Source of the DNA: Thermodesulfobacteriota bacterium
GTDB taxonomy: Bacteria > Desulfobacterota_D > UBA1144 > Nemesobacterales > UBA2774
Assembly (NCBI GenBank): GCA_965216785.1
Contig: OZ244197.1
Span: 2,624,001-2,688,000, forward strand
Direction of reading: 5' to 3'
Length of the DNA: 64,000 bases
Under the pieces are notes generated by a model, which was not told the DNA's origin, did no database searches, and worked only from the letters and a program-made list of their open reading frames with translations. Position numbers and translations under genes: made by a program. Below are positions 48,267 through 60,645 of this stretch, piece by piece. Numbering within the stretch: the stretch's first letter is position 1; the number at the start of each line of letters is the position of its first letter.

Positions 48267-48341
48267 GCCGACGTAGCTCAGCGGTAGAGCAGCTCACTCG
48301 TAATGAGCAGGTCATCGGTTCAATTCCGATCGTCGGCTCCA
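48267..48341 (+). tRNA. tRNA-Thr(CGT), encoded CCA; integration target
   Basis: GCCGACGTAGCTCAGCGGTAGAGCA-GCTCA-CTCGTAA-TGAGC-AGGTCATCGGTTCAATTCCGATCGTCGGCTCCA. Confidence 0.97.
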
Positions 48342-48460
48342 ATGTTTACTGATAGTTACATCACTATTAGGTACTGGATAATTACCAGTGTCTTCTCCCT
48401 GTCTAACCACTACACTTTAATTTATGTCTACTGTGAATCTTACGCAGGAGGCAAAGACTA

Positions 48461-49501
48461 ATGGCTTCATTAGTATTCAAACATAATAGTTACTATGCTG
48501 TATTCAGTGTTAATAAGAGGAAGAAGTGGATAAGAATCGGTAAGGTTAGTAAACCAGAAGCGAAGAAAATTCTTAAACAACTGGAAGCTGAACATCTAAA
48601 AGGGAAATTGGGATTAGTAGAAAATAAGCAAATCCTACTGGATGATTTTCTAAATGAATATCTAGCCCACTCTAAAACGAATAAAGCCCCAAATACTTAT
48701 AGGCTGGAAAAAGGAATAGCTAAAACTATTAGATCACATTTCGGTAATATTCTTTTAACAACAATTGATAACCGCGGGCTAGATACTTATAAAGCAAGCA
48801 GAGTAAATAAAGGGTTAAAACCTTCAAGCATTAATAGAGAAATAATGGCTATTAAATATATGCTAAGGAAAGCTTATGATTGGAAGTATATTGAGCATAT
48901 ACCTAATATTAAGTTATTAAAGATTCCCAATAGACCTGTTCAATTTTTATCAGTGGATGAAATTGACAGTCTAATTAACCATTCGAGCATATGGTTAAAG
49001 CCAATAATAATGGTATTGCGTAATACTGGTATGAGGATAGGCGAGCTACTCAACTTACGCTTTAATGATATAGATTTAGCTAGAGGATATATAACTGTTA
49101 GAAGCCCGAAAACTAATAATTATAGAATAGTTCCTATTAACAATGAGCTTAGCACCCTACTCCATTGGCTTACTAATAATTATATAGCCCCGAAGGGTTT
49201 AACTGTTAAGCCTCGATCCAACTTACATAAGGAATATTTGTTTTGTCATTCAGATGGAACTAGAATTAAGAGCATTAAGACTAGTTTTAATAAAGCATGT
49301 AAAAGAGCAGGTATTAAAGCCACTGTACATATGCTTAGACACAGCTTCGCTTCATATTTAGTAATGAATGGGGTGGATTTAGTATCGGTTAAAGAGTTAT
49401 TAGGCCATACAAGTATTAATACAACAATGATTTATTCACATATATCTAATGAGCATAAGAATAATTCAGTTTCTAGGTTGCCATGGTTGAACAACTATTA
49501 A
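48461..49501 (+). CDS. tyrosine integrase with N-terminal arm-binding-like domain
   Basis: Catalytic set apparently intact: TGMRIGE, PKT, HMLRHSFAS, LLGH, TMIYSH; AGGAGG RBS. Confidence 0.95.
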   Translation: MASLVFKHNSYYAVFSVNKRKKWIRIGKVSKPEAKKILKQLEAEHLKGKLGLVENKQILLDDFLNEYLAHSKTNKAPNTYRLEKGIAKTIRSHFGNILLTTIDNRGLDTYKASRVNKGLKPSSINREIMAIKYMLRKAYDWKYIEHIPNIKLLKIPNRPVQFLSVDEIDSLINHSSIWLKPIIMVLRNTGMRIGELLNLRFNDIDLARGYITVRSPKTNNYRIVPINNELSTLLHWLTNNYIAPKGLTVKPRSNLHKEYLFCHSDGTRIKSIKTSFNKACKRAGIKATVHMLRHSFASYLVMNGVDLVSVKELLGHTSINTTMIYSHISNEHKNNSVSRLPWLNNY

Positions 49502-52723: not shown

Positions 52724-52990
52724 CTACATTAGATCACGCTCAGAATGGATTTTAATCATTCGTTCACGGGCTAATTCTCTCTGTTTAGTTGATACCTTCT
52801 TTGGAGGGCTAATTTTAACCCAGTTCTTAGGTACTATGTAAACCTCATAATCGGCCTGCTTATGACTCGGCTCCACGCCTAATTTCTTCATTCTGGTTTT
52901 AACCCGTCTTTGTCTGGTAGTTATGCTTGCGGTATCTTCTGCATCGTTAAAATTAATAACTGTCTCGGTTTCTAGTTTAGTTAGACTCAT
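52724..52990 (-). CDS. small basic hypothetical protein of mobile-element type
   Basis: GAGGA RBS; ETVINFN.AE.TA...VPK.WVKI.PP.K.S..QRE pattern recalled from phage/ICE hypotheticals. Confidence 0.75.
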   Translation of the reverse strand: MSLTKLETETVINFNDAEDTASITTRQRRVKTRMKKLGVEPSHKQADYEVYIVPKNWVKISPPKKVSTKQRELARERMIKIHSERDLM

Positions 52991-53014: not shown

Positions 53015-53311
53015 TTATTCTTTATTTAGCGGTGGTACTAAGTAATAATCTGGATCTCTATGACCCTCGCGTCGGTTATCATTGGCAAACATCATATAAT
53101 TGACATTCCCGTCTTCTGTTGTCTCCGCATAATCAATGACCTTTTGTAAATCTTCCTTTGTCATACTGACGGAGAAGTATGGCATATCGTATCCATCTCT
53201 AGCGTATAACCAGGCCGCACCCCAGGTTATAAACTCCTTCTTATCATCTTTAACATGTTTCACCTCTTCCTTAGCCGATATCCGAAAAAATGACCTTTTT
53301 TTCTTAGACAT
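53015..53311 (-). CDS. small hypothetical protein, DUF736-like
   Basis: GAGGA RBS; GAAW, PYFSV, F.ND....H.DPDY motifs. ORF likely real, family call tentative. Confidence 0.6.
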   Translation of the reverse strand: MSKKKRSFFRISAKEEVKHVKDDKKEFITWGAAWLYARDGYDMPYFSVSMTKEDLQKVIDYAETTEDGNVNYMMFANDNRREGHRDPDYYLVPPLNKE

Positions 53312-53481
53312 ATCCTATTCCTCGCTTGTTTATTTTATTCAGTATATGACATATTCAACTACTTTATATCACCTACTGAACAATATTATTCATAATTAGT
53401 AGTCGTAGAATTTAGATGGTATTAATCCAGGATACTTTAAACCAAATTTGATTGATATTATCACCCATCCATCTAATTCAA

Positions 53482-53526
53482 CACAACAAAATGTGTTATA
53501 AATACATAGAACCACAATATGTTGTG
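53482..53526. promoter_or_regulatory. tandem NrdR-box-like operators overlapping a leftward promoter
   Basis: CACAACAAAATGTG (53482) and CACAATATGTTGTG (53513), 31 bp apart; TTGACA on minus strand at 53529-53534. Confidence 0.55.
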
Positions 53527-53759
53527 TTTGTCAAGTATTTTTCACAAATTGTGGTAGATTAGTGTAAATATCTAATGCAATGTCTGAACATATGAAAACA
53601 ATTGAAGATTAAGTGAAAATAATATGCTCAATAAGGGAAAAGGCTATTAAGTCAATATAACCCGCGGCTAGTTATTAACTTTATTAAACACGTCTACCCC
53701 CTATATATAATTAATATATATACACGGTTAATATATGGGTATTCATGATTTAACTGTAA

Positions 53760-54070
53760 GCTTAATGTTTAATAATAACTGCACGTTTATTAAACGTAAG
53801 TATTTAACCTTTACTAATGAAAAGAAAAACATATGTTTAATAAACATACGTACTAACAAGTACCTACATGTATCTAATAGTTAATACATACGAACTAATA
53901 GTTAATGCGTATGTATTAACTGGTAATACATATGATAAACTAGTAGAATAAGTGGTAAACCAGTAGAACTTATGGTAATCAATTGGTAGTATTCTTTTCA
54001 TTTAGTAAAAACTGGTATATATGTTAATACATGTGTTATGTAGTAACCAATGGTTATGTATTAACTAGTT
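53760..54070. repeat. nested inverted-repeat cluster in non-coding AT-rich DNA
   Basis: AGTTAATACATACG/CGTATGTATTAACT (53879-53921); GTTAATACAT/ATGTATTAAC (54023-54065); TTTACTAATGAAAAGAA/TTCTTTTCATTTAGTAAA (53810-54009). Confidence 0.75.
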
Positions 54071-54678
54071 ATTAGGCCCGGATTAATCATTACTGGATTA
54101 AATAAAGCTTATTGACCTTTAAACAAATATAATTTACTAGACCCTGATTACCATTTAACTATTTAGCATCCATGTACCCTTATCAACTCATGATTAATCG
54201 TTGAAAAATCCGCATAATAGACATTCTGTGCATAATATTGGGAATTAATTATCATATATTTATAGATGGTTACAATACACACTTAAAGTAATAATCTCTT
54301 GCTTACTATGTGGAATTTAGTAGATTATGATAATTGTATATTAATACCGGATAACTATTCCCCCAATACTTGTATATGTTATATATAAAGTATATAGTAT
54401 ACTAATCCACGGGCTGGTGGTAGAGTAGCTGGGATGGATAATTTACCCTTTATGGCGGGCTAATCTATTATGAGCATTTGATAAATGTGGATTAGTATTT
54501 AATAGAAAACAATGTTCTTAGACATTAGATGACAATCTACTAACATAAACCAATAATGACCTATTCCCTTATGATTTATATTCAATCATCTCTTTATCCA
54601 GCCTTAGACTAGCTGTACAATTGTTTATGAATATTGTACAATGCTTGTCAATTATTGATTCTAAAGGAGAATGGATAA

Positions 54679-55950
54679 ATGAATAGACTTAAATTATTCT
54701 TACCTATAGTAGCTTTAATATTTATTTTTGCGCTGCATCAACAACCTGCAAACGCCGAAGATATAACTCCTGTAATCAGGCAATTAACAAACTTCGATAG
54801 TGACGTTCTCCCAGGCAGAAGACCTGTAAGCCAGGACGGGTCGTTGATAGCGGCAAGTAGCGGTGAAAATATTAACGGCGGTAACCCGGATGAGAACGGT
54901 GAGATATATTTATTTCACGTACCTGTTTTATCTATCCGTAATATTGATCAAATAACCAATACCTCTAACTGTTTCAACTTCGATCCCACTATAAGCGGCG
55001 ACGGAAACATAATAGCTTTTATTTCAGACTGTGATATTACGGGACAAAACCAGAATAACCTTCAGCAGGGCTTCTTCTTTAATAGGCTAAGCGGTCAGTT
55101 CACCCAGTTCACGAATAATACGAATGGAAATGTTTCAATAATTGTGATAAGCAAAGACGGCTCGACTATCGCAATCAGATCAACCATGAACATAAACGGC
55201 GGTAATCCGGATTTCAGCGATGAGATTTTCACCTTTAACATTAATAGCGGGACGCTAACGCAGATTACTATGTCTAATACTGACAGTACTGATCCGGATA
55301 TAAACGCCGACGGGTCTGTTATAATTATGAGATCGCGGGCCAACTTCACGGGACAGAACCCGACAAACCGAAACCAGGTTTTTAGATACGACGGAAATTT
55401 CCAACAAATCACAAACATTACCACGGGAACTACAACTCTCCCATCGGTAAACGACGACGGGTCAATTATATCGTATGGCTCAAACGGGGACGTTCTTTTA
55501 CCAAACCCTGGATTTATTCATCGGATTTACTTGTACGACAACAATACAGGTACGACCACGCAAATAACCAATAACAATACCGGGAGCTCTAATATCCCAA
55601 CCCTTAGCGGTGACGGCAAGAGGCTGTTATTCAAATCGAACGGTGATGTATTGGGACCCGGTAACGGCTTTGATCAGCTTTTCTTATATGAGATGGGCGT
55701 AATTACTCAGCTCACGAATTTTACCGGCGCTGAAGTTGATAATATATTTCAGCCTAGTATAAGCTGTGACGGAGAGTCTTTTGTTTTCGGTGGGAACGTA
55801 CCAGATAGTAGAATTCAGCTTTTCAAGGGGCTATTCGAGGTTCCGGTGAGGCCTATTCCTACCCTTTCAGAGTGGGGTCTAGTAGCTATGGCTGGAGTAT
55901 TGGGAATCGTAGGTCTACTAGCTATTCGCAGAAGAAAAGCACGGATTTAG
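54679..55950 (+). CDS. IPTL-CTERM sorted surface protein with TolB/PD40-like beta-propeller repeats
   Basis: Signal peptide; repeats QITN....P.IS.DG..I.F.S; tail VRPIPTLSEWGLVAMAGVLGIVGLLAIRRRK. Confidence 0.92.
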   Translation: MNRLKLFLPIVALIFIFALHQQPANAEDITPVIRQLTNFDSDVLPGRRPVSQDGSLIAASSGENINGGNPDENGEIYLFHVPVLSIRNIDQITNTSNCFNFDPTISGDGNIIAFISDCDITGQNQNNLQQGFFFNRLSGQFTQFTNNTNGNVSIIVISKDGSTIAIRSTMNINGGNPDFSDEIFTFNINSGTLTQITMSNTDSTDPDINADGSVIIMRSRANFTGQNPTNRNQVFRYDGNFQQITNITTGTTTLPSVNDDGSIISYGSNGDVLLPNPGFIHRIYLYDNNTGTTTQITNNNTGSSNIPTLSGDGKRLLFKSNGDVLGPGNGFDQLFLYEMGVITQLTNFTGAEVDNIFQPSISCDGESFVFGGNVPDSRIQLFKGLFEVPVRPIPTLSEWGLVAMAGVLGIVGLLAIRRRKARI

Positions 55951-56009
55951 TAATTCATAATTCCCCCTTATCTATCCTCCTCCTGCAGGCAATTAGGGGG
56001 GAAGCTGGT

Positions 56010-56035
56010 ATGAGGGGAGTTTTGGCTCCCCTCAT
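56010..56035 (+). terminator. stem-loop after IPTL gene 1
   Basis: ATGAGGGGAG-TTTTGG-CTCCCCTCAT; U-tract weak. Confidence 0.55.
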
Positions 56036-56091
56036 TAAAATCCATCTGTCGACCTATAGCTGGGCCTAATCAACTGATGAGATATATAGCG

Positions 56092-56323
56092 CTATTCTAC
56101 TATTGAACCCCCAGTAACAACATGATAAATTAGATACTTACGCAGGAGGCATATGCATTAAAAGTGTCTAACCATTATCTAACCATTCAATCGTATTTAG
56201 TTAATGTGAGGTCTTATGCTAGATAATTTATCAAGTGTTAACAGCTCATTAGCTGACCAAATATTAGCTAATATCTCACTCGTAATGAGCAGGTCATCGG
56301 TTCAATTCCGATCGTCGGCTCCA
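56092..56323 (+). repeat. 232-bp right-end repeat copy 1 (arm plus 49-bp att core)
   Basis: Matches 58375-58606 with one visible mismatch (ACAGCTCATT vs ACAGCTCCTT). Confidence 0.95.
56103..56131 (+). promoter_or_regulatory. outward-facing sigma70-type promoter in the right arm (second copy 58386-58414)
   Basis: TTGAAC-17 bp-TAAATT with extended -10 TGn. Confidence 0.6.
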
Positions 56324-56563
56324 GTAAATACTAGGACTTTCTCCGACTCACGGCGAGAACATCTAGGGCTTTCTACCCATTGTCTACCAACTAGAACCTC
56401 TTGCTTTAGATGACAACCTACTATTATTAACTAATAATTGCCCATTCCCTTTTGATTTGTATAGTCAGTTATCCCTTTATCCAGCCTTTGACTAGTGTTT
56501 ACATTGACCTACACATGTAGTAGAATAGCTACAATATTTTTGTTTAAAGGAGGATATTAAACA

Positions 56564-57322
56564 ATGTTTACAACCAACAGACTTTATTTATCAGTGTTAT
56601 TAATAGCTGTGTTAGCAGTAGTTCCAATATGGTCAGCTAGTGCACAGGATCCGGATCAAGTAGACAGTGTTGACCCATTATTTATCGATCATTTAAACCT
56701 AATCAGTGAAATGACAGTTCCAAATGTGCTCATTGAGTTTGACGACATGCCGCAGGGACCCACAACAATCGAAGATATACTGAACACATTCCCCGATTCA
56801 TGTCTTGGGAATATCACTATCACATCCAAACAGCCACCCTTTGTAGGATCGTCTGGTATATATAATTCTAACACAGGCGGTGGTAGAGCGCTTGCCTTAA
56901 ATCCCGATAATTCAGGTGGTTTATATCTTGTAGATCCGGGGGGGCTTTTTCGCCCGAATGATGACATAGTTATCGATTTGATTGTGCCTGTTAGACAGAT
57001 AGGAATTGAATTAGGCGACGTGTCTGGGACAATGAGTGCTGAGTTTTTTAACGGCGCCGTGTCTCTTGGAACTATTGGCTTACCTATAAGCTCAGTTGAC
57101 AGGACCAATACAATAGAAAGTGATATTGCATTCAATCGCGTTGTAATATCTTCACCATTTGCACCTGATCTTATTGATTTTGTAATGCCCTCTGTCAGAG
57201 TACAGTTGTGTAATTTCGTAAGACCTATACCGACGCTTTCCGAATGGGGTCTAATAGCTATGGCAGGAGTATTAGGAATAATCGCTATTTTGGCTATCCG
57301 CAGAAGAAAGGCAGCTGCCTAA
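56564..57322 (+). CDS. IPTL-CTERM sorted surface protein, unknown beta-rich passenger
   Basis: AAGGAGG RBS, signal peptide ending ASA, tail VRPIPTLSEWGLIAMAGVLGIIAILAIRRRK. Confidence 0.92.
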   Translation: MFTTNRLYLSVLLIAVLAVVPIWSASAQDPDQVDSVDPLFIDHLNLISEMTVPNVLIEFDDMPQGPTTIEDILNTFPDSCLGNITITSKQPPFVGSSGIYNSNTGGGRALALNPDNSGGLYLVDPGGLFRPNDDIVIDLIVPVRQIGIELGDVSGTMSAEFFNGAVSLGTIGLPISSVDRTNTIESDIAFNRVVISSPFAPDLIDFVMPSVRVQLCNFVRPIPTLSEWGLIAMAGVLGIIAILAIRRRKAAA

Positions 57323-57356
57323 TCGGCAACCAACTTATACAATACAATTTAACTTT

Positions 57357-57383
57357 AAAAAGGGGAGCTTCGGCTCCCTTTTT
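57357..57383. terminator. intrinsic terminator, probably bidirectional
   Basis: AAAAAG-GGGAGC-TTCG-GCTCCC-TTTTT. Confidence 0.88.
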
Positions 57384-57539
57384 AGTTTGGTTTTAATATC
57401 TATAAATCCAACTTAAATCCTTGTTGACATATGGGGTGCTAGACAATTATTGTAATATATTAATATTGTGTTGGTACACATTGGTTACAACTTAAATTTG
57501 ATTGTGCATGAATAAGTAATACTTACATAAGAAGGAGCT

Positions 57540-58265
57540 ATGATTATGAGCAATCAATCAATGGTTATTGGAAATGAATCTGCAAACTGTAGAAAATCTA
57601 ACTGGTGTAGAATCACTACAATTTTATCCATTTTATTACTAGGTATGTATATCGCATCACAGACTGTATTGGCAGCAAACCCGACGGATCCAGAGTGGGT
57701 ACTGAAAGCCAACTACGTAGATGCTTGCAGTTGCGACGTGGCATGCCCCTGTATCTTCGGTCAGCCATCAACTCACGGTTATTGTAAGGGTGCAACATTG
57801 GTGGAGATCACAGAAGGATATTATGGCAAGGTCGACCTAACTGGTGTGAGTGTTCTGGCTGTGTACAACAGTGGCAAATGGATTAAATTTTTTGTTAGTG
57901 AGAATGCAACCAAAGAACAGACAGATGCAGTAGTTGAATTCCTCCCGGTCGCTGAAGGTTTCTTTAAAGCTCCTATCCGCGAAGTAAAGAACCAGCCAAT
58001 ATCAGTATTACGTACAAGTGACAAAGTGAAAATTTCTACTGAAGAGACTCTAATCGAGTTAGAGCAGATACAGAATGCCAACGGAGACCCAATCAAGGTA
58101 CTAGGATTACCTGCTCATGGATTCCCGGGCTTGCCCTATCTTGACCATACACAATATAAAACAGTAACATTGGTACATGATAGTGAAAAGGAAAAATTCA
58201 ATTTTTCTGAGACCAATGGGTACACAGCAAGGATAGATGCTTCTAGCGATTCGAAAGAGCAATAA
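57540..58265 (+). CDS. DUF1326-like secreted metal-binding protein
   Basis: W.LKANYVDACSCDVACPCIFG..STHGYC, I.EG.YGKVDLTG. Confidence 0.82.
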   Translation: MIMSNQSMVIGNESANCRKSNWCRITTILSILLLGMYIASQTVLAANPTDPEWVLKANYVDACSCDVACPCIFGQPSTHGYCKGATLVEITEGYYGKVDLTGVSVLAVYNSGKWIKFFVSENATKEQTDAVVEFLPVAEGFFKAPIREVKNQPISVLRTSDKVKISTEETLIELEQIQNANGDPIKVLGLPAHGFPGLPYLDHTQYKTVTLVHDSEKEKFNFSETNGYTARIDASSDSKEQ

Positions 58266-58374
58266 CTAAAGATCTAAATTACGTGTTTCTACCAAACTAT
58301 TAGATCCAGTCGACTCAAACATCCATTTCTCAACCCTTATACAGGCCTAACCAATTTAGTAAGAGTTACTACCC

Positions 58375-58606
58375 CTATTCTACTATTGAACCCCCAGTAA
58401 CAACATGATAAATTAGATACTTACGCAGGAGGCATATGCATTAAAAGTGTCTAACCATTATCTAACCATTCAATCGTATTTAGTTAATGTGAGGTCTTAT
58501 GCTAGATAATTTATCAAGTGTTAACAGCTCCTTAGCTGACCAAATATTAGCTAATATCTCACTCGTAATGAGCAGGTCATCGGTTCAATTCCGATCGTCG
58601 GCTCCA
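58375..58606 (+). repeat. 232-bp right-end repeat copy 2 (arm plus 49-bp att core)
   Basis: Direct repeat of 56092-56323. Confidence 0.95.
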
Positions 58607-58713
58607 TTGTTTATAGTAAGTTACACCACATTTAGATACTGGCTCACGGATATTATCTACCCAACTCACTGTTATTCATGCCTACTGAGAATCTTACACG
58701 GGAGGCAAAACTA

Positions 58714-58899
58714 ATGGCTACACTAGTCCACAAGTATAAGAGTTACTATGGGGATTTAATCTATGGCCTATCATTCGGTACCTGTTGTGGAATCGTAAGA
58801 CCAATACCGACACTTTCTGAATGAGGTCTAATAGCTATGGCAGGAGTTTTAGGGATAATTGGGTTACTGGCACTCCGAAGAAGAAATCAAACAGCATAA
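58714..58899 (+). pseudogene. chimeric relic: integrase N-terminus fused in frame to an IPTL-CTERM tail with a Trp-to-stop change
   Basis: Reads MATLVHKYKSYYGDLIYGLSFGTCCGIVRPIPTLSE*GLIAMAGVLGIIGLLALRRRNQTA*; compare integrase start MASLVFKHNSYY. Confidence 0.88.
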
Positions 58900-58968
58900 A
58901 CTGAAAGAATAAATCTGATCACACAAACGGGAACAGTACACTCAAACCGATAAAGAAAGATAAGAGCA

Positions 58969-60645
58969 TTATCTTTCTTTGCCCCTCTGCCGCAAATATT
59001 TATCGATATCCTCCACATTCTTTTGGTTAAATTTCTTAAAAGTCGTAAAGCCGTCGCTCGTCATTAAAATATCGGTCCTGTTCCATACGGCTAAATTGAC
59101 ATCCCTGTCCGATGTTGCGGATAAATTGTCTTCGAGCTGTTTCAAAATCTCAGGGGATAGAGTATCTGTACCGATGGTCTCGACTAAAACATACCAAGAT
59201 TCGCCCTTTGGCCTGTGATGAATGTTTATCGGGATAATATTGCTGTATTGTTCAAACTCTCCTAATAACGCTTCATCGATCTCACCCCTCAATCGTTCTT
59301 CCTCCTCTGTAAAGCCTGCGTAAATGTAGCCGGGAAGAAGGTCTCCGCTCGCATCGGAATAGGTAATTTCTTCATTTTTTATAATGAGGCTCATCTTTGG
59401 GTTTTGCATTTTACTTCTCAGGTCCTCCTGAAGCTCCCCTATCTCGCTCTCCGTAAGATTCCTATAGCTCTGTATTGTAGCGACAACGGTCGGCCCGCGG
59501 AGCAGTTCAACATAGTCTACATCTACGAGCGACATACCGTGCCAGTGGGTAAACCTTTCTATAAGCTCTTTCTCGATTACATTCACGGCTTTTTTCCAGT
59601 CGGTAAGCGATTCCTTAAGAAAGAATCCATCGAGGTTCTGTCTGATGACGTTCTCGCCCGACCCAATAGCGCCAACGTCTTGAGCAAGTACATTCCTGAA
59701 TATAAGCTCTGTAGGTTTCTTTGTCTGCTCTTCGATATTCTTCTGCACCGCTTCGACCTGATAGGGCGTTACCGTCCTCGGACTCTTTATATTTGCCAAT
59801 ACGTACAATTTCCCATTTTCCTCGTCGTAAATAAAACCGTCGAGCGATGTTGTATGAAGCTCTATCATTGCTGATTCCAAAATGTTTTTAATGGTGTTGC
59901 TCAAGTACCTCTCCTGGACAATCTCGATAAGTGAGTAGGTAAGGAACACGCATACGGCTAGAAATCCGATAATTGCCAGACCAAAACGCCTGAGCAGGTC
60001 TTTGGTCGAGACCGAGATCCACCACGGGGAAAGGCCTGCAAGCATGAACGTCGTACCGGCAACTAGCAGTATCGACAGGAAATTTGCAAAAAACAGCATA
60101 AAGGAGCCGAATGCCCCGTAGTAATAGCCGAGCGAAACGCATATACCGGTATTTGATAACGGAGGCACAATGGCTGTAGCTATCGCAACGCCGGGGAGAG
60201 CCGGACTCAATTTTTCATCTATCATAGCATACGCCCCTGCAAAACCGGCCAGTACCGCTACCATAAGATCGAGCAGGGTGGGCTTGGTTCTGGCGAGCAT
60301 TTCAGGGGTTGCTGCAAGCTCCAGAGGCAAAAATCCGATCAGACCCGCAGAAACAATCGCCAGTATGGCACCCAGAATTACTGAGCGCAGGGCTGTGGCC
60401 AGAAGACGGGGTTTGCCTATGACTATGCCAAGGGTGATGCCTATTATGGGGGTCATAAGAGGCGAAACCAGCATAGCTCCGATAATGACCGCAGTGCTGT
60501 TGGATATAAGACCGAAGGCAGCGATGAGTGAAGCAGTGGCCAGAAGAGCGTAGAATCTAAAGCCCGGCTCTGACCCGGTACTGATCTCCTCAATTATTTG
60601 TTCTTTACGCTGCTCAGATACCCTGGTAAAAAATTTAGTAATCAT
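58969..60645 (-). CDS. DUF389/TIGR00341-like membrane protein with long C-terminal extension
   Basis: NSTAVIIGAMLVSPLMTPI, ARTKPTLLDL, LPGVAIATAIVPPL. Confidence 0.88.
   Translation of the reverse strand: MITKFFTRVSEQRKEQIIEEISTGSEPGFRFYALLATASLIAAFGLISNSTAVIIGAMLVSPLMTPIIGITLGIVIGKPRLLATALRSVILGAILAIVSAGLIGFLPLELAATPEMLARTKPTLLDLMVAVLAGFAGAYAMIDEKLSPALPGVAIATAIVPPLSNTGICVSLGYYYGAFGSFMLFFANFLSILLVAGTTFMLAGLSPWWISVSTKDLLRRFGLAIIGFLAVCVFLTYSLIEIVQERYLSNTIKNILESAMIELHTTSLDGFIYDEENGKLYVLANIKSPRTVTPYQVEAVQKNIEEQTKKPTELIFRNVLAQDVGAIGSGENVIRQNLDGFFLKESLTDWKKAVNVIEKELIERFTHWHGMSLVDVDYVELLRGPTVVATIQSYRNLTESEIGELQEDLRSKMQNPKMSLIIKNEEITYSDASGDLLPGYIYAGFTEEEERLRGEIDEALLGEFEQYSNIIPINIHHRPKGESWYVLVETIGTDTLSPEILKQLEDNLSATSDRDVNLAVWNRTDILMTSDGFTTFKKFNQKNVEDIDKYLRQRGKER

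Follow-up and report, generated by a model that had tools for sequence, protein, structure and literature searches.

An array of three modules at the 3′ end of tRNA-Thr(CGT)

We analysed a window of 64,000 nucleotides (G000:C1:2624001-2688000, G000 being the genome under study) that lies within a single 3.12-Mb contig with 46% GC, from what is probably a Dadabacteria-type bacterium, to judge by the source names of distant IPTL homologues. The subject of the analysis is a 2283-bp cassette located near a tRNA-Thr(CGT) gene, behind an element that encodes a tyrosine integrase. Blastn searches showed that the last 49 bp of the tRNA, which begin at the anticodon stem, are present in three copies that are 100% identical (starting at 48293, 56275 and 58558). 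These repeated cores separate, in this order, the tRNA, module 1 with its integrase (7982 bp from core to core), the cassette (56275 to 58558) and the relic of a third module (Table 1). According to excerpts of PMC4383910, the anticodon stem is a common crossover class for islands in tRNA genes. The three members form an array at tRNA-Thr(CGT) in which decay rises with distance from the tRNA; in module 3, an IPTL tail interrupted by a stop is fused to 12 integrase-like codons, and no right end of this module was found within the next 62 kb. All three modules carry an IPTL gene, of which module 3 retains the tail only.

The initial annotation had described the cassette as a unit of 2283 bp without a recombinase, and this description proved right: the spacing of the cores is 2283 bp, tblastn with the module 1 integrase gave a best E value of 0.58, and the only genes present are one for an IPTL-CTERM protein and one for a DUF1326 protein, both with open frames. 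The short left arm with a repeat pair that it reported was also located. In contrast, the annotated parts do not make up the whole cassette, which also holds a solo end of an IS3-family insertion sequence (IS). Of the promoter and strong terminator assigned to the IPTL gene, the terminator was confirmed whereas the promoter was not, sigma-70-like matches being at the level of chance (20 versus 18.6 ± 4.4 in shuffled sequences); what supports a promoter is a conserved upstream region and a ribosome-binding-like motif only. The terminator is not specific to the cassette, as its 16-bp hairpin core is found exactly in 20 of the 50 IPTL genes of the genome. The DUF1326 gene is present in a single copy, and its homologues in the searched relatives are at most 40% identical.

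Table 1. Features of the tRNA-Thr(CGT) array (positions within the window).
Feature	Position	Strand	Description
tRNA-Thr(CGT), target gene of the array	48267..48341	+	ARAGORN, blastn; last 49 bp (from anticodon stem) form the repeated core
Left arm of module 1 (L1)	48342..48460	+	One arm-type repeat is exact (48402), its partner 11 bp earlier degenerate; GCAGGAGGCA box
Tyrosine integrase of module 1, predicted helper	48461..49501	+	346 aa; Pfam Phage_integrase E 3.6e-37; PHROG 1 E 1.5e-68
Upstream region of module 1 IPTL gene	54525..54678	+	Homologues: cassette 56406-56563 and a sequence close to 1.608 Mb
Module 1 cargo, TolB-like propeller protein with IPTL-CTERM tail	54679..55950	+	423 aa; Pfam PD40 and IPTL-CTERM
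Right arm of module 1 (R1)	56037..56274	+	Box at 56140; arm-repeat pair at 56167 and 56178
Core copy 2, 49-bp tRNA 3′ fragment	56275..56323	+	100% to tRNA end; junction of module 1 right end and cassette left end
Left arm of cassette (L2)	56324..56405	+	Two arm-type repeats, 56372 and 56383; ends before box and integrase start
IPTL upstream region joined to L2	56406..56563	+	Putative deletion junction at about 56405
IPTL-CTERM protein	56564..57322	+	252 aa, N-terminal hydrophobic leader, unassigned middle domain; Pfam E 2.7e-08; predicted exosortase-type surface protein
Intrinsic-terminator-like hairpin	57358..57383	+	-18.2 kcal/mol, z -4.3; 0/200 shuffles as good
Solo terminal repeat of IS3-family element	57396..57447	+	nhmmer E 2.7e-09; outer end toward DUF1326 gene
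DUF1326 protein	57540..58265	+	241 aa; Pfam E 3.9e-19
Right arm of cassette (R2)	58318..58557	+	Box at 58423; arm-repeat pair at 58450
Core copy 3	58558..58606	+	blastn; cassette right end, left end of decayed module 3
Module 3 relic	58607..58899	+	Left arm 77% like that of module 1, one repeat unit missing, then integrase-like codons and IPTL tail

A spaced repeat pair in the putative attachment arms

The arms that flank the cores share a pair of repeats spaced by 11 bp. This pair occurs five times in the 3.12 Mb of the genome, each time in an attachment arm (R1, R2, L2, the third right arm, which lies at 1.607 Mb, and the left arm belonging to an element at tRNA-Pro with an integrase of 59% identity), and a control with the reversed pattern gave no occurrence. 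In the relatives G005, G012, G021, G022, G043, G034 and G055, the pair precedes tRNA cores by about 100 bp or follows them at 50-60 bp, and integrase homologues with 42-77% identity lie just downstream of it. Across 101 genomes the bare arm pattern produced many chance matches and the control was about as frequent; only matches beside a tRNA core or an integrase were counted, and 29 arm-pattern loci were inspected individually. Judged by sequence, the repeat pair is the mark of predicted attachment arms that belong to a single integrase family of Dadabacteria-type genomes. The cassette is non-autonomous, with attachment-type arms of this same family at both ends. A circular form of the cassette would hold both pairs intact, 108 and 97 bp before and 49 and 60 bp after the core.

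A second conserved motif, the GCAGGAGGCA box, overlaps the ribosome-binding site of the integrase in L1 and is also conserved in the right arms, where no open reading frame (ORF) lies behind it. We observed this box at 48442, 56140, 58423 and 58696, and the copy at the integrase and that in the right arm appear to co-vary in G021 and G005. Between the repeats and the core of R1 there is a sequence with one mismatch to the consensus for integration host factor (IHF).

Near-identity and patchwork structure of the right arms

In agreement with the initial annotation, the ends of module 1 and of the cassette (56092-56323 and 58375-58606, 232 bp) differ by a single base, A at 56248 and C at 58531. 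Within this stretch R1 and R2 agree at 182 of 183 positions (56092-56274), and identity falls abruptly to 36/57 just upstream (56037-56091; Fisher p 5e-14). The adjacent sequence had been called unrelated, which did not hold at this level of similarity, nor for the upstream region of the cassette IPTL gene, which is 82% identical to that of module 1. The third right arm, at 1.607 Mb, matches both R1 and R2 at 154 of 183 positions; further upstream it follows first R1 (34/36 over 56037-72) and then R2 (20/21 over 56073-91). Such patchwork arms point to homologous exchange among sibling right ends, for which tandem SXT/R391 elements that recombine to hybrids and deletions provide a precedent in excerpts of PMC5812530. 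Because the right arms in G012 and G021 are only 73-77% identical, constraint alone would not give the 99.5% identity of R1 and R2. The near-identity had been taken to imply recent activity or homogenisation; given the abrupt drop at 56092 and the patchwork third arm, homogenisation fits better than recent movement of the cassette, of which the near-identity is no evidence.

The third right arm lies, together with a tRNA-Thr core that has one mismatch, behind a C-type-lectin IPTL gene (G000:C1:1606806-1608080, minus strand; L001:6807-8081). This locus is 1.07 Mb from tRNA-Thr, inside an island that has tRNA-Ser(TGA) at one end and a repeat of the first 41 bp of this tRNA at the other. The left part of the locus stops at a solo IS3 end, and another type of left arm follows the core. 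It looks like a displaced piece of a tRNA-Thr array.

A probable sibling origin for the left end of the cassette

Alignment of L2 with other left arms gave scores of 16 for G005, 10 for G012, -7 for module 1 and -22 for module 3, against shuffled means of about -20 (sd about 5), which suggests that L2 derives from a sibling element and not from module 1. At about 56405 the sequence switches to the upstream region of an IPTL gene: positions 56406-56495 are 82% identical to 54525-54612 of module 1 over 90 bp, and another 61 bp are 87% identical. A single deletion within a sibling element, reaching from its left arm into the sequence upstream of its IPTL gene, explains this switch. The cassette is thus likely to be a deletion derivative of a sister integrative element. 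Similar deletion relics are module 3 and the locus G012:C100, where the full order is IPTL tail, right arm, core, left arm, integrase stub and cargo, and the stub matches over 42 codons. The DUF1326 gene may have arrived at the IS3 end.

The junction of arm and IPTL region was also found, with 7 differences, in a 251-bp contig of another study (run X6), and the same run contained a right arm with 4 differences in 222 bp, followed by different DNA after the core. Both X6 contigs are short, of low depth and unlinked. The DNA after the X6 core had no match in the genome or in the collected loci, and the divergence of the arms within the genome (1/232) did not differ significantly from that in X6 (4/222, p 0.21). 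No match to the left end of the cassette was obtained in any of the 32 other family genomes, and 3 of 100 other genomes contain homologues of the cassette IPTL gene, with neither an arm pair nor a tRNA-Thr core in the surrounding 1.5 kb or so. In the two genomes of the same genus (80-82% complete), no contig extends past tRNA-Thr.

Copy number of the cassette

Depth was taken from the contigs of four deep runs, all from one sample that is possibly the source; contig data drop rare forms, and rare circles are invisible in them. The runs listed as containing the sequence included no RNA run. Runs X5, X7 and X8, made up mostly of isolated identical 151-bp pieces at low depth, were left out as evidence. 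Contigs unique to the cassette had depths of 287, 86, 84 and 74 in the four runs, similar numbers being recorded for module 1 (276, 81, 89 and 85) and for the right flank (285, 88, 81 and 89), and the contigs of the shared arm reached 483, 149, 149 and 131, about 1.5-1.8 times these depths. Such a pattern is what a chromosome with one cassette and two arms would give, and it speaks against both stitched alleles and an abundant circle. Consistent with this number, blastn detected no second copy of the cassette in the genome.

These data bear on two alternative explanations. One is that the tandem is an assembly artefact, in which two alleles from different cells were stitched through the 232-bp repeat. 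No contig among those listed bridges this repeat and the four deep runs represent one sample, as such an artefact would have it; however, the cassette contig is at full depth, where alleles would split the depth, and tandem arrays of the same type exist in G021 and G012. We regard an artefact as very improbable.

The other explanation, proposed in the initial annotation, is a self-standing mini-element that leaves and re-enters the chromosome as a 2283-bp circle through the action in trans of the module 1 integrase, independently of module 1. In such a circle neither repeat pair would be broken, which makes it more complete than the left arm of module 1; the frames of the two genes are open, and the X6 contigs hold the arm-to-IPTL junction (7 differences in 251 bp) and a right arm (4 in 222 bp) that is followed by different DNA. 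Against it, the cassette is single-copy with no excess of circles, its left end was found in none of the 32 other family genomes and its IPTL homologues lie outside arm-bounded units, the X6 contigs have the shortness and low depth already noted, and recombination explains the identity of the arms. Together with an L2 that appears to come from a sibling and with a pattern of tandem accretion, these observations make an independently travelling element quite unlikely.

A possible history of the array and its excision

The explanation that we consider probable is that the cassette is an integrase-less deletion derivative of a sister element, placed in tandem behind module 1 and excised together with it by the module 1 integrase, as a passenger resembling a cis-mobilizable element (CIME). 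An integrase-bearing sibling would first have integrated at the anticodon arm of the tRNA, ahead of the older module 3. The integrase and middle part of this sibling would then have been lost by a deletion beginning at about 56405, and the DUF1326 unit would have been joined at the IS3 end. Module 1 would have integrated later at the restored tRNA, displacing the cassette outwards, and homologous exchange would finally have equalised the two right arms over 183 bp. Since R2 equals R1, the integrase would likely pair the left end of module 1 with either of them, so that it may excise module 1 (7982 bp) or modules 1 and 2 (10265 bp), the cassette being captured in cis in the second case. The cassette alone (2283 bp) could exit rarely, through the integrase or through RecA acting on the 232-bp direct repeat. 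The base that differs between the arms is 27 bp from the core, and raw reads would thus separate excision products made by the integrase from most of those made by RecA.

Several observations weigh against excision of this kind. The contigs listed for the four runs showed neither an excess of circles nor an excision joint (the one joint listed was caused by an IPTL paralogue). L2 lacks the GCAGGAGGCA box that L1 and the right arms have, and one of the two repeats of L1 is degenerate, so recombination could be weak or absent. The arm repeats are putative integrase-binding sites, proposed from their position and co-occurrence and by analogy with lambda-family attP layouts. Three sequences do not show in which direction the arms were exchanged, or when. 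Module 1 encodes the integrase, two TPR proteins, the TolB-like IPTL protein and unassigned ORFs (among them ones of 336, 98 and 88 aa); Pfam scans of its 7 main ORFs, and PHROGs and NCBIfam scans of the integrase, the IPTL protein and 4 unassigned ORFs, returned integrase, TPR and IPTL families only, and no relaxase, type IV secretion system (T4SS), conjugation or capsid and packaging gene was recognised in it, nor any excisionase.

The missing excision products, the lack of the box in L2, the degenerate L1 and the unrecognised excisionase, as well as a module 3 that is clearly dead, would also suit a third alternative, namely that the cassette is a fixed relic on which no integrase acts, its arms equalised by RecA-type conversion or unequal exchange and the unit kept or popped out as any piece of chromosome. 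Against a relic, the integrase has a whole frame in which the R-K-H-R-H-Y motifs, the catalytic set of tyrosine integrases, are all present, the three cores are 100% identical, the repeat pairs of the cassette are intact, and module 1 is AT-rich (34.7% GC versus 46% for the genome). We judge the relic unlikely, and co-excision of the cassette with module 1 remains the reading that we favour.

The right arm beside other cargo

Blastn detected the right arm in 2 of 40 relatives; one more relative (G045) was added by pattern, and 3 metagenome contigs also have the arm. The exact arm pattern occurred at 3 metagenome loci, 2 genome loci and no viral locus, the 2 genome loci being on the same contigs as G012:C100 and G021:C42 and hence not independent. 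The DNA upstream of the right arm encodes a C-type-lectin IPTL protein at 1.607 Mb, an IPTL tail in G012, small proteins in G021 and L046, and, by sequence inspection, an OmpA-like protein in L047; in L045 the arm belongs to a tandem unit in which a small gene follows in place of the tRNA core. The initial annotation had considered that the arm might never be found next to other cargo, which would speak for a one-off duplication; the arm does occur next to other cargo, in the genome, in relatives and in metagenome contigs. The search that it had suggested for other cassettes was in this way successful for arms with other cargo (1.607 Mb, G012, G021 and L045-L047), whereas the left end of the cassette was not recovered from the 32 genomes. 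Integrase-less units bounded by tRNA-Thr fragments are present in G021, G022, G013, G019 and G004, without the repeat pair.

Of the 10 right arms found for this subfamily, 5 have an IPTL gene no more than one gene upstream. This frequency, and the IPTL gene in each of the three modules, raise the idea of a tRNA-anchored cassette shuttle for surface proteins, in which a neighbouring integrase would capture and release recombinase-free circles with four intact arm sites. The IPTL tail, the terminator and the IS end would then act as portable homology for loading new exosortase-anchored genes, giving an integron-like system made from phage-type attachment sites. If this were true, it would be a new route for surface-protein diversification. 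However, the genome has 50 IPTL genes, the other five arms have none upstream, and no circle was seen; the idea is improbable, and a passenger excised along with module 1 is still what we propose.

Two further tandem arrangements were noted. In L045 two right arms (463-620 and 1419-1560) lie about 960 bp apart with an IPTL gene between the copies, and both end in a degenerate core start followed by the same small cysteine-rich gene. At tRNA-Pro(CGG), a second tandem array of the genome (G000:C1:77160-116017) comprises three modules, two 3′ and one 5′ of the tRNA, all of which encode an integrase, and includes a 260-bp stretch that resembles the arm upstream of the tRNA-Thr core of G021.

Relation to known mobile elements

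In excerpts of PMC5704250, CIMEs are elements that have lost integration and transfer genes and kept attL and attR; excerpts of PMC7563491 give 1.2-13 kb for classical CIMEs, which lie farthest from the target in tandems, the most decayed being the farthest. The cassette has flanks of the attL and attR type (two intact 49-bp cores, with repeat pairs placed as in siblings), contains no integrase, excisionase or transfer gene next to its IPTL and DUF1326 genes, lies in tandem with an integrase-bearing element and farther than it from the target, and would have arisen by deletion from a larger autonomous element. It may therefore be classed as a CIME in the broad sense, and is likely an ordinary passenger of an already described kind. 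With the streptococcal CIMEs of ICESt1/ICESt3-type tandems it shares the position behind an integrase element, the order of decay and the size range; in contrast to them, as far as the excerpts of PMC5704250 and PMC7563491 go, its neighbour is a mobile genomic island without recognised relaxase or T4SS, the target is tRNA-Thr(CGT), the right arms are recombined and the host is of Dadabacteria type. A CIME in the strict sense descends from a conjugative or relaxase-bearing parent, either an integrative and conjugative element (ICE) or an integrative and mobilizable element (IME); none of the module 1 proteins scanned belongs to the relaxase and/or conjugation families that define such elements.

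Other tandem systems offer partial parallels, again as portrayed in excerpts of the respective papers. At ssrA of Dehalococcoides, 15 islands without an integration module were read as possible CIMEs (PMC3146451); they share with the cassette the tandem arrangement, bounds made of target repeats, cargo from an expanded family (rdhA there, IPTL-CTERM here) and inferred swapping of modules, and differ in having a serine recombinase and a tmRNA target, where we find a tyrosine integrase, paired arm repeats, a tRNA and a length of 2.3 kb. In PAISt of Streptomyces turgidiscabies, an integrase-less module with att bounds beside an integrase-bearing one excises as a circle via the sites of its neighbour, and three excision products are possible, as they would be here; its modules measure 105-674 kb with excision and transfer demonstrated, whereas the cassette is known from sequence alone (PMC4057263). 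The SXT/R391 elements, same-site tandem relatives that recombine, resemble the present case in what the patchwork arms suggest; they are, however, conjugative elements in complete form, and some of them have Bet/Exo recombination genes of their own, none of which were recognised here (PMC5812530). Island finders that require an integrase miss units of this type, according to excerpts of PMC4383910. A literature search, which left most subscription journals outside its reach, found no paper on this element family, and IPTL-CTERM is not mentioned in the 25 papers listed out of 234. The present case adds an uncultured lineage to those with tandem accretion and gene capture of the CIME type, a result of modest importance, and defines the arm-type repeat and att layout of an integrase family of Dadabacteria.

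Integron cassettes and IS-derived cassettes are, like the unit studied here, small and recombinase-free and arrayed next to a tyrosine recombinase; the former are bounded by attC hairpins and the latter by paired terminal inverted repeats. The cassette differs from both in its bounds, 49-bp tRNA fragments with phage-type arms, and in carrying two genes with their own upstream regions. An integron cassette array was rejected, the module 1 integrase reaching 102 bits with TIGR02249 against a cut-off of 265, the bounds being tRNA fragments and the ends having no long inverted repeat. An IS-derived miniature inverted-repeat transposable element or mobile cassette was likewise set aside, as there is one solo IS3 end inside the cassette and none at its ends. 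A phage satellite or prophage was also discarded: PHROGs matches were limited to the integrase and weak matches of unassigned function, and viral contigs gave no arm match and, in a search for close relatives, no relative of the module 1 integrase.

Additional features of the cassette and of module 1

A pattern search of the genome revealed 50 ORFs with an IPTL-type tail, and there are one exosortase-family match and three genes of the IHF/HU family. A profile of the IS3 end, built from 19 genomic copies with the cassette copy included, matched 29 sites in the genome, one of them the left end of an IS at C1:1323500 with an rve transposase. Solo ends of this type are dispersed, and 6 of the 29 sit 59-79 bp behind an IPTL gene and terminator hairpin, as if IPTL tail, terminator and IS3 end were one travelling block. 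The cassette IPTL gene has a paralogue 25 kb away (G000:C1:2705206-2706006), with 80% identity over 71 bp at the start and 85% over 168 bp of tail and terminator; the two proteins are 35% identical.

In module 1, the 88-aa ORF (52724-52990) belongs to a phage-type family (Atlas score 0.95), matches no Pfam family and PHROG 1709 weakly, and is a candidate directionality factor; a single-sequence model of it was poor (predicted local distance difference test score 59) and had no Foldseek match at E 0.001, and its Atlas neighbours carry no Pfam family. An Rfam scan of 53300-59000 detected tRNA fragments and weak matches only. Positions 53312-54678 consist of 1.37 kb of AT-rich non-coding DNA with inverted repeats and 27-29% GC in its middle part, short blocks of which recur in the sibling elements L026 and L046; it may be an origin or a regulatory region. 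Finally, integrases of the same family are encoded by two elements, each about 6-6.6 kb long, that carry a family-B DNA polymerase of 740-755 aa (L029:9159-11381 in G005, and G000:C1:111376-113643; PF03175, E 2e-22 and 5e-20) with a C-terminal helix-turn-helix.

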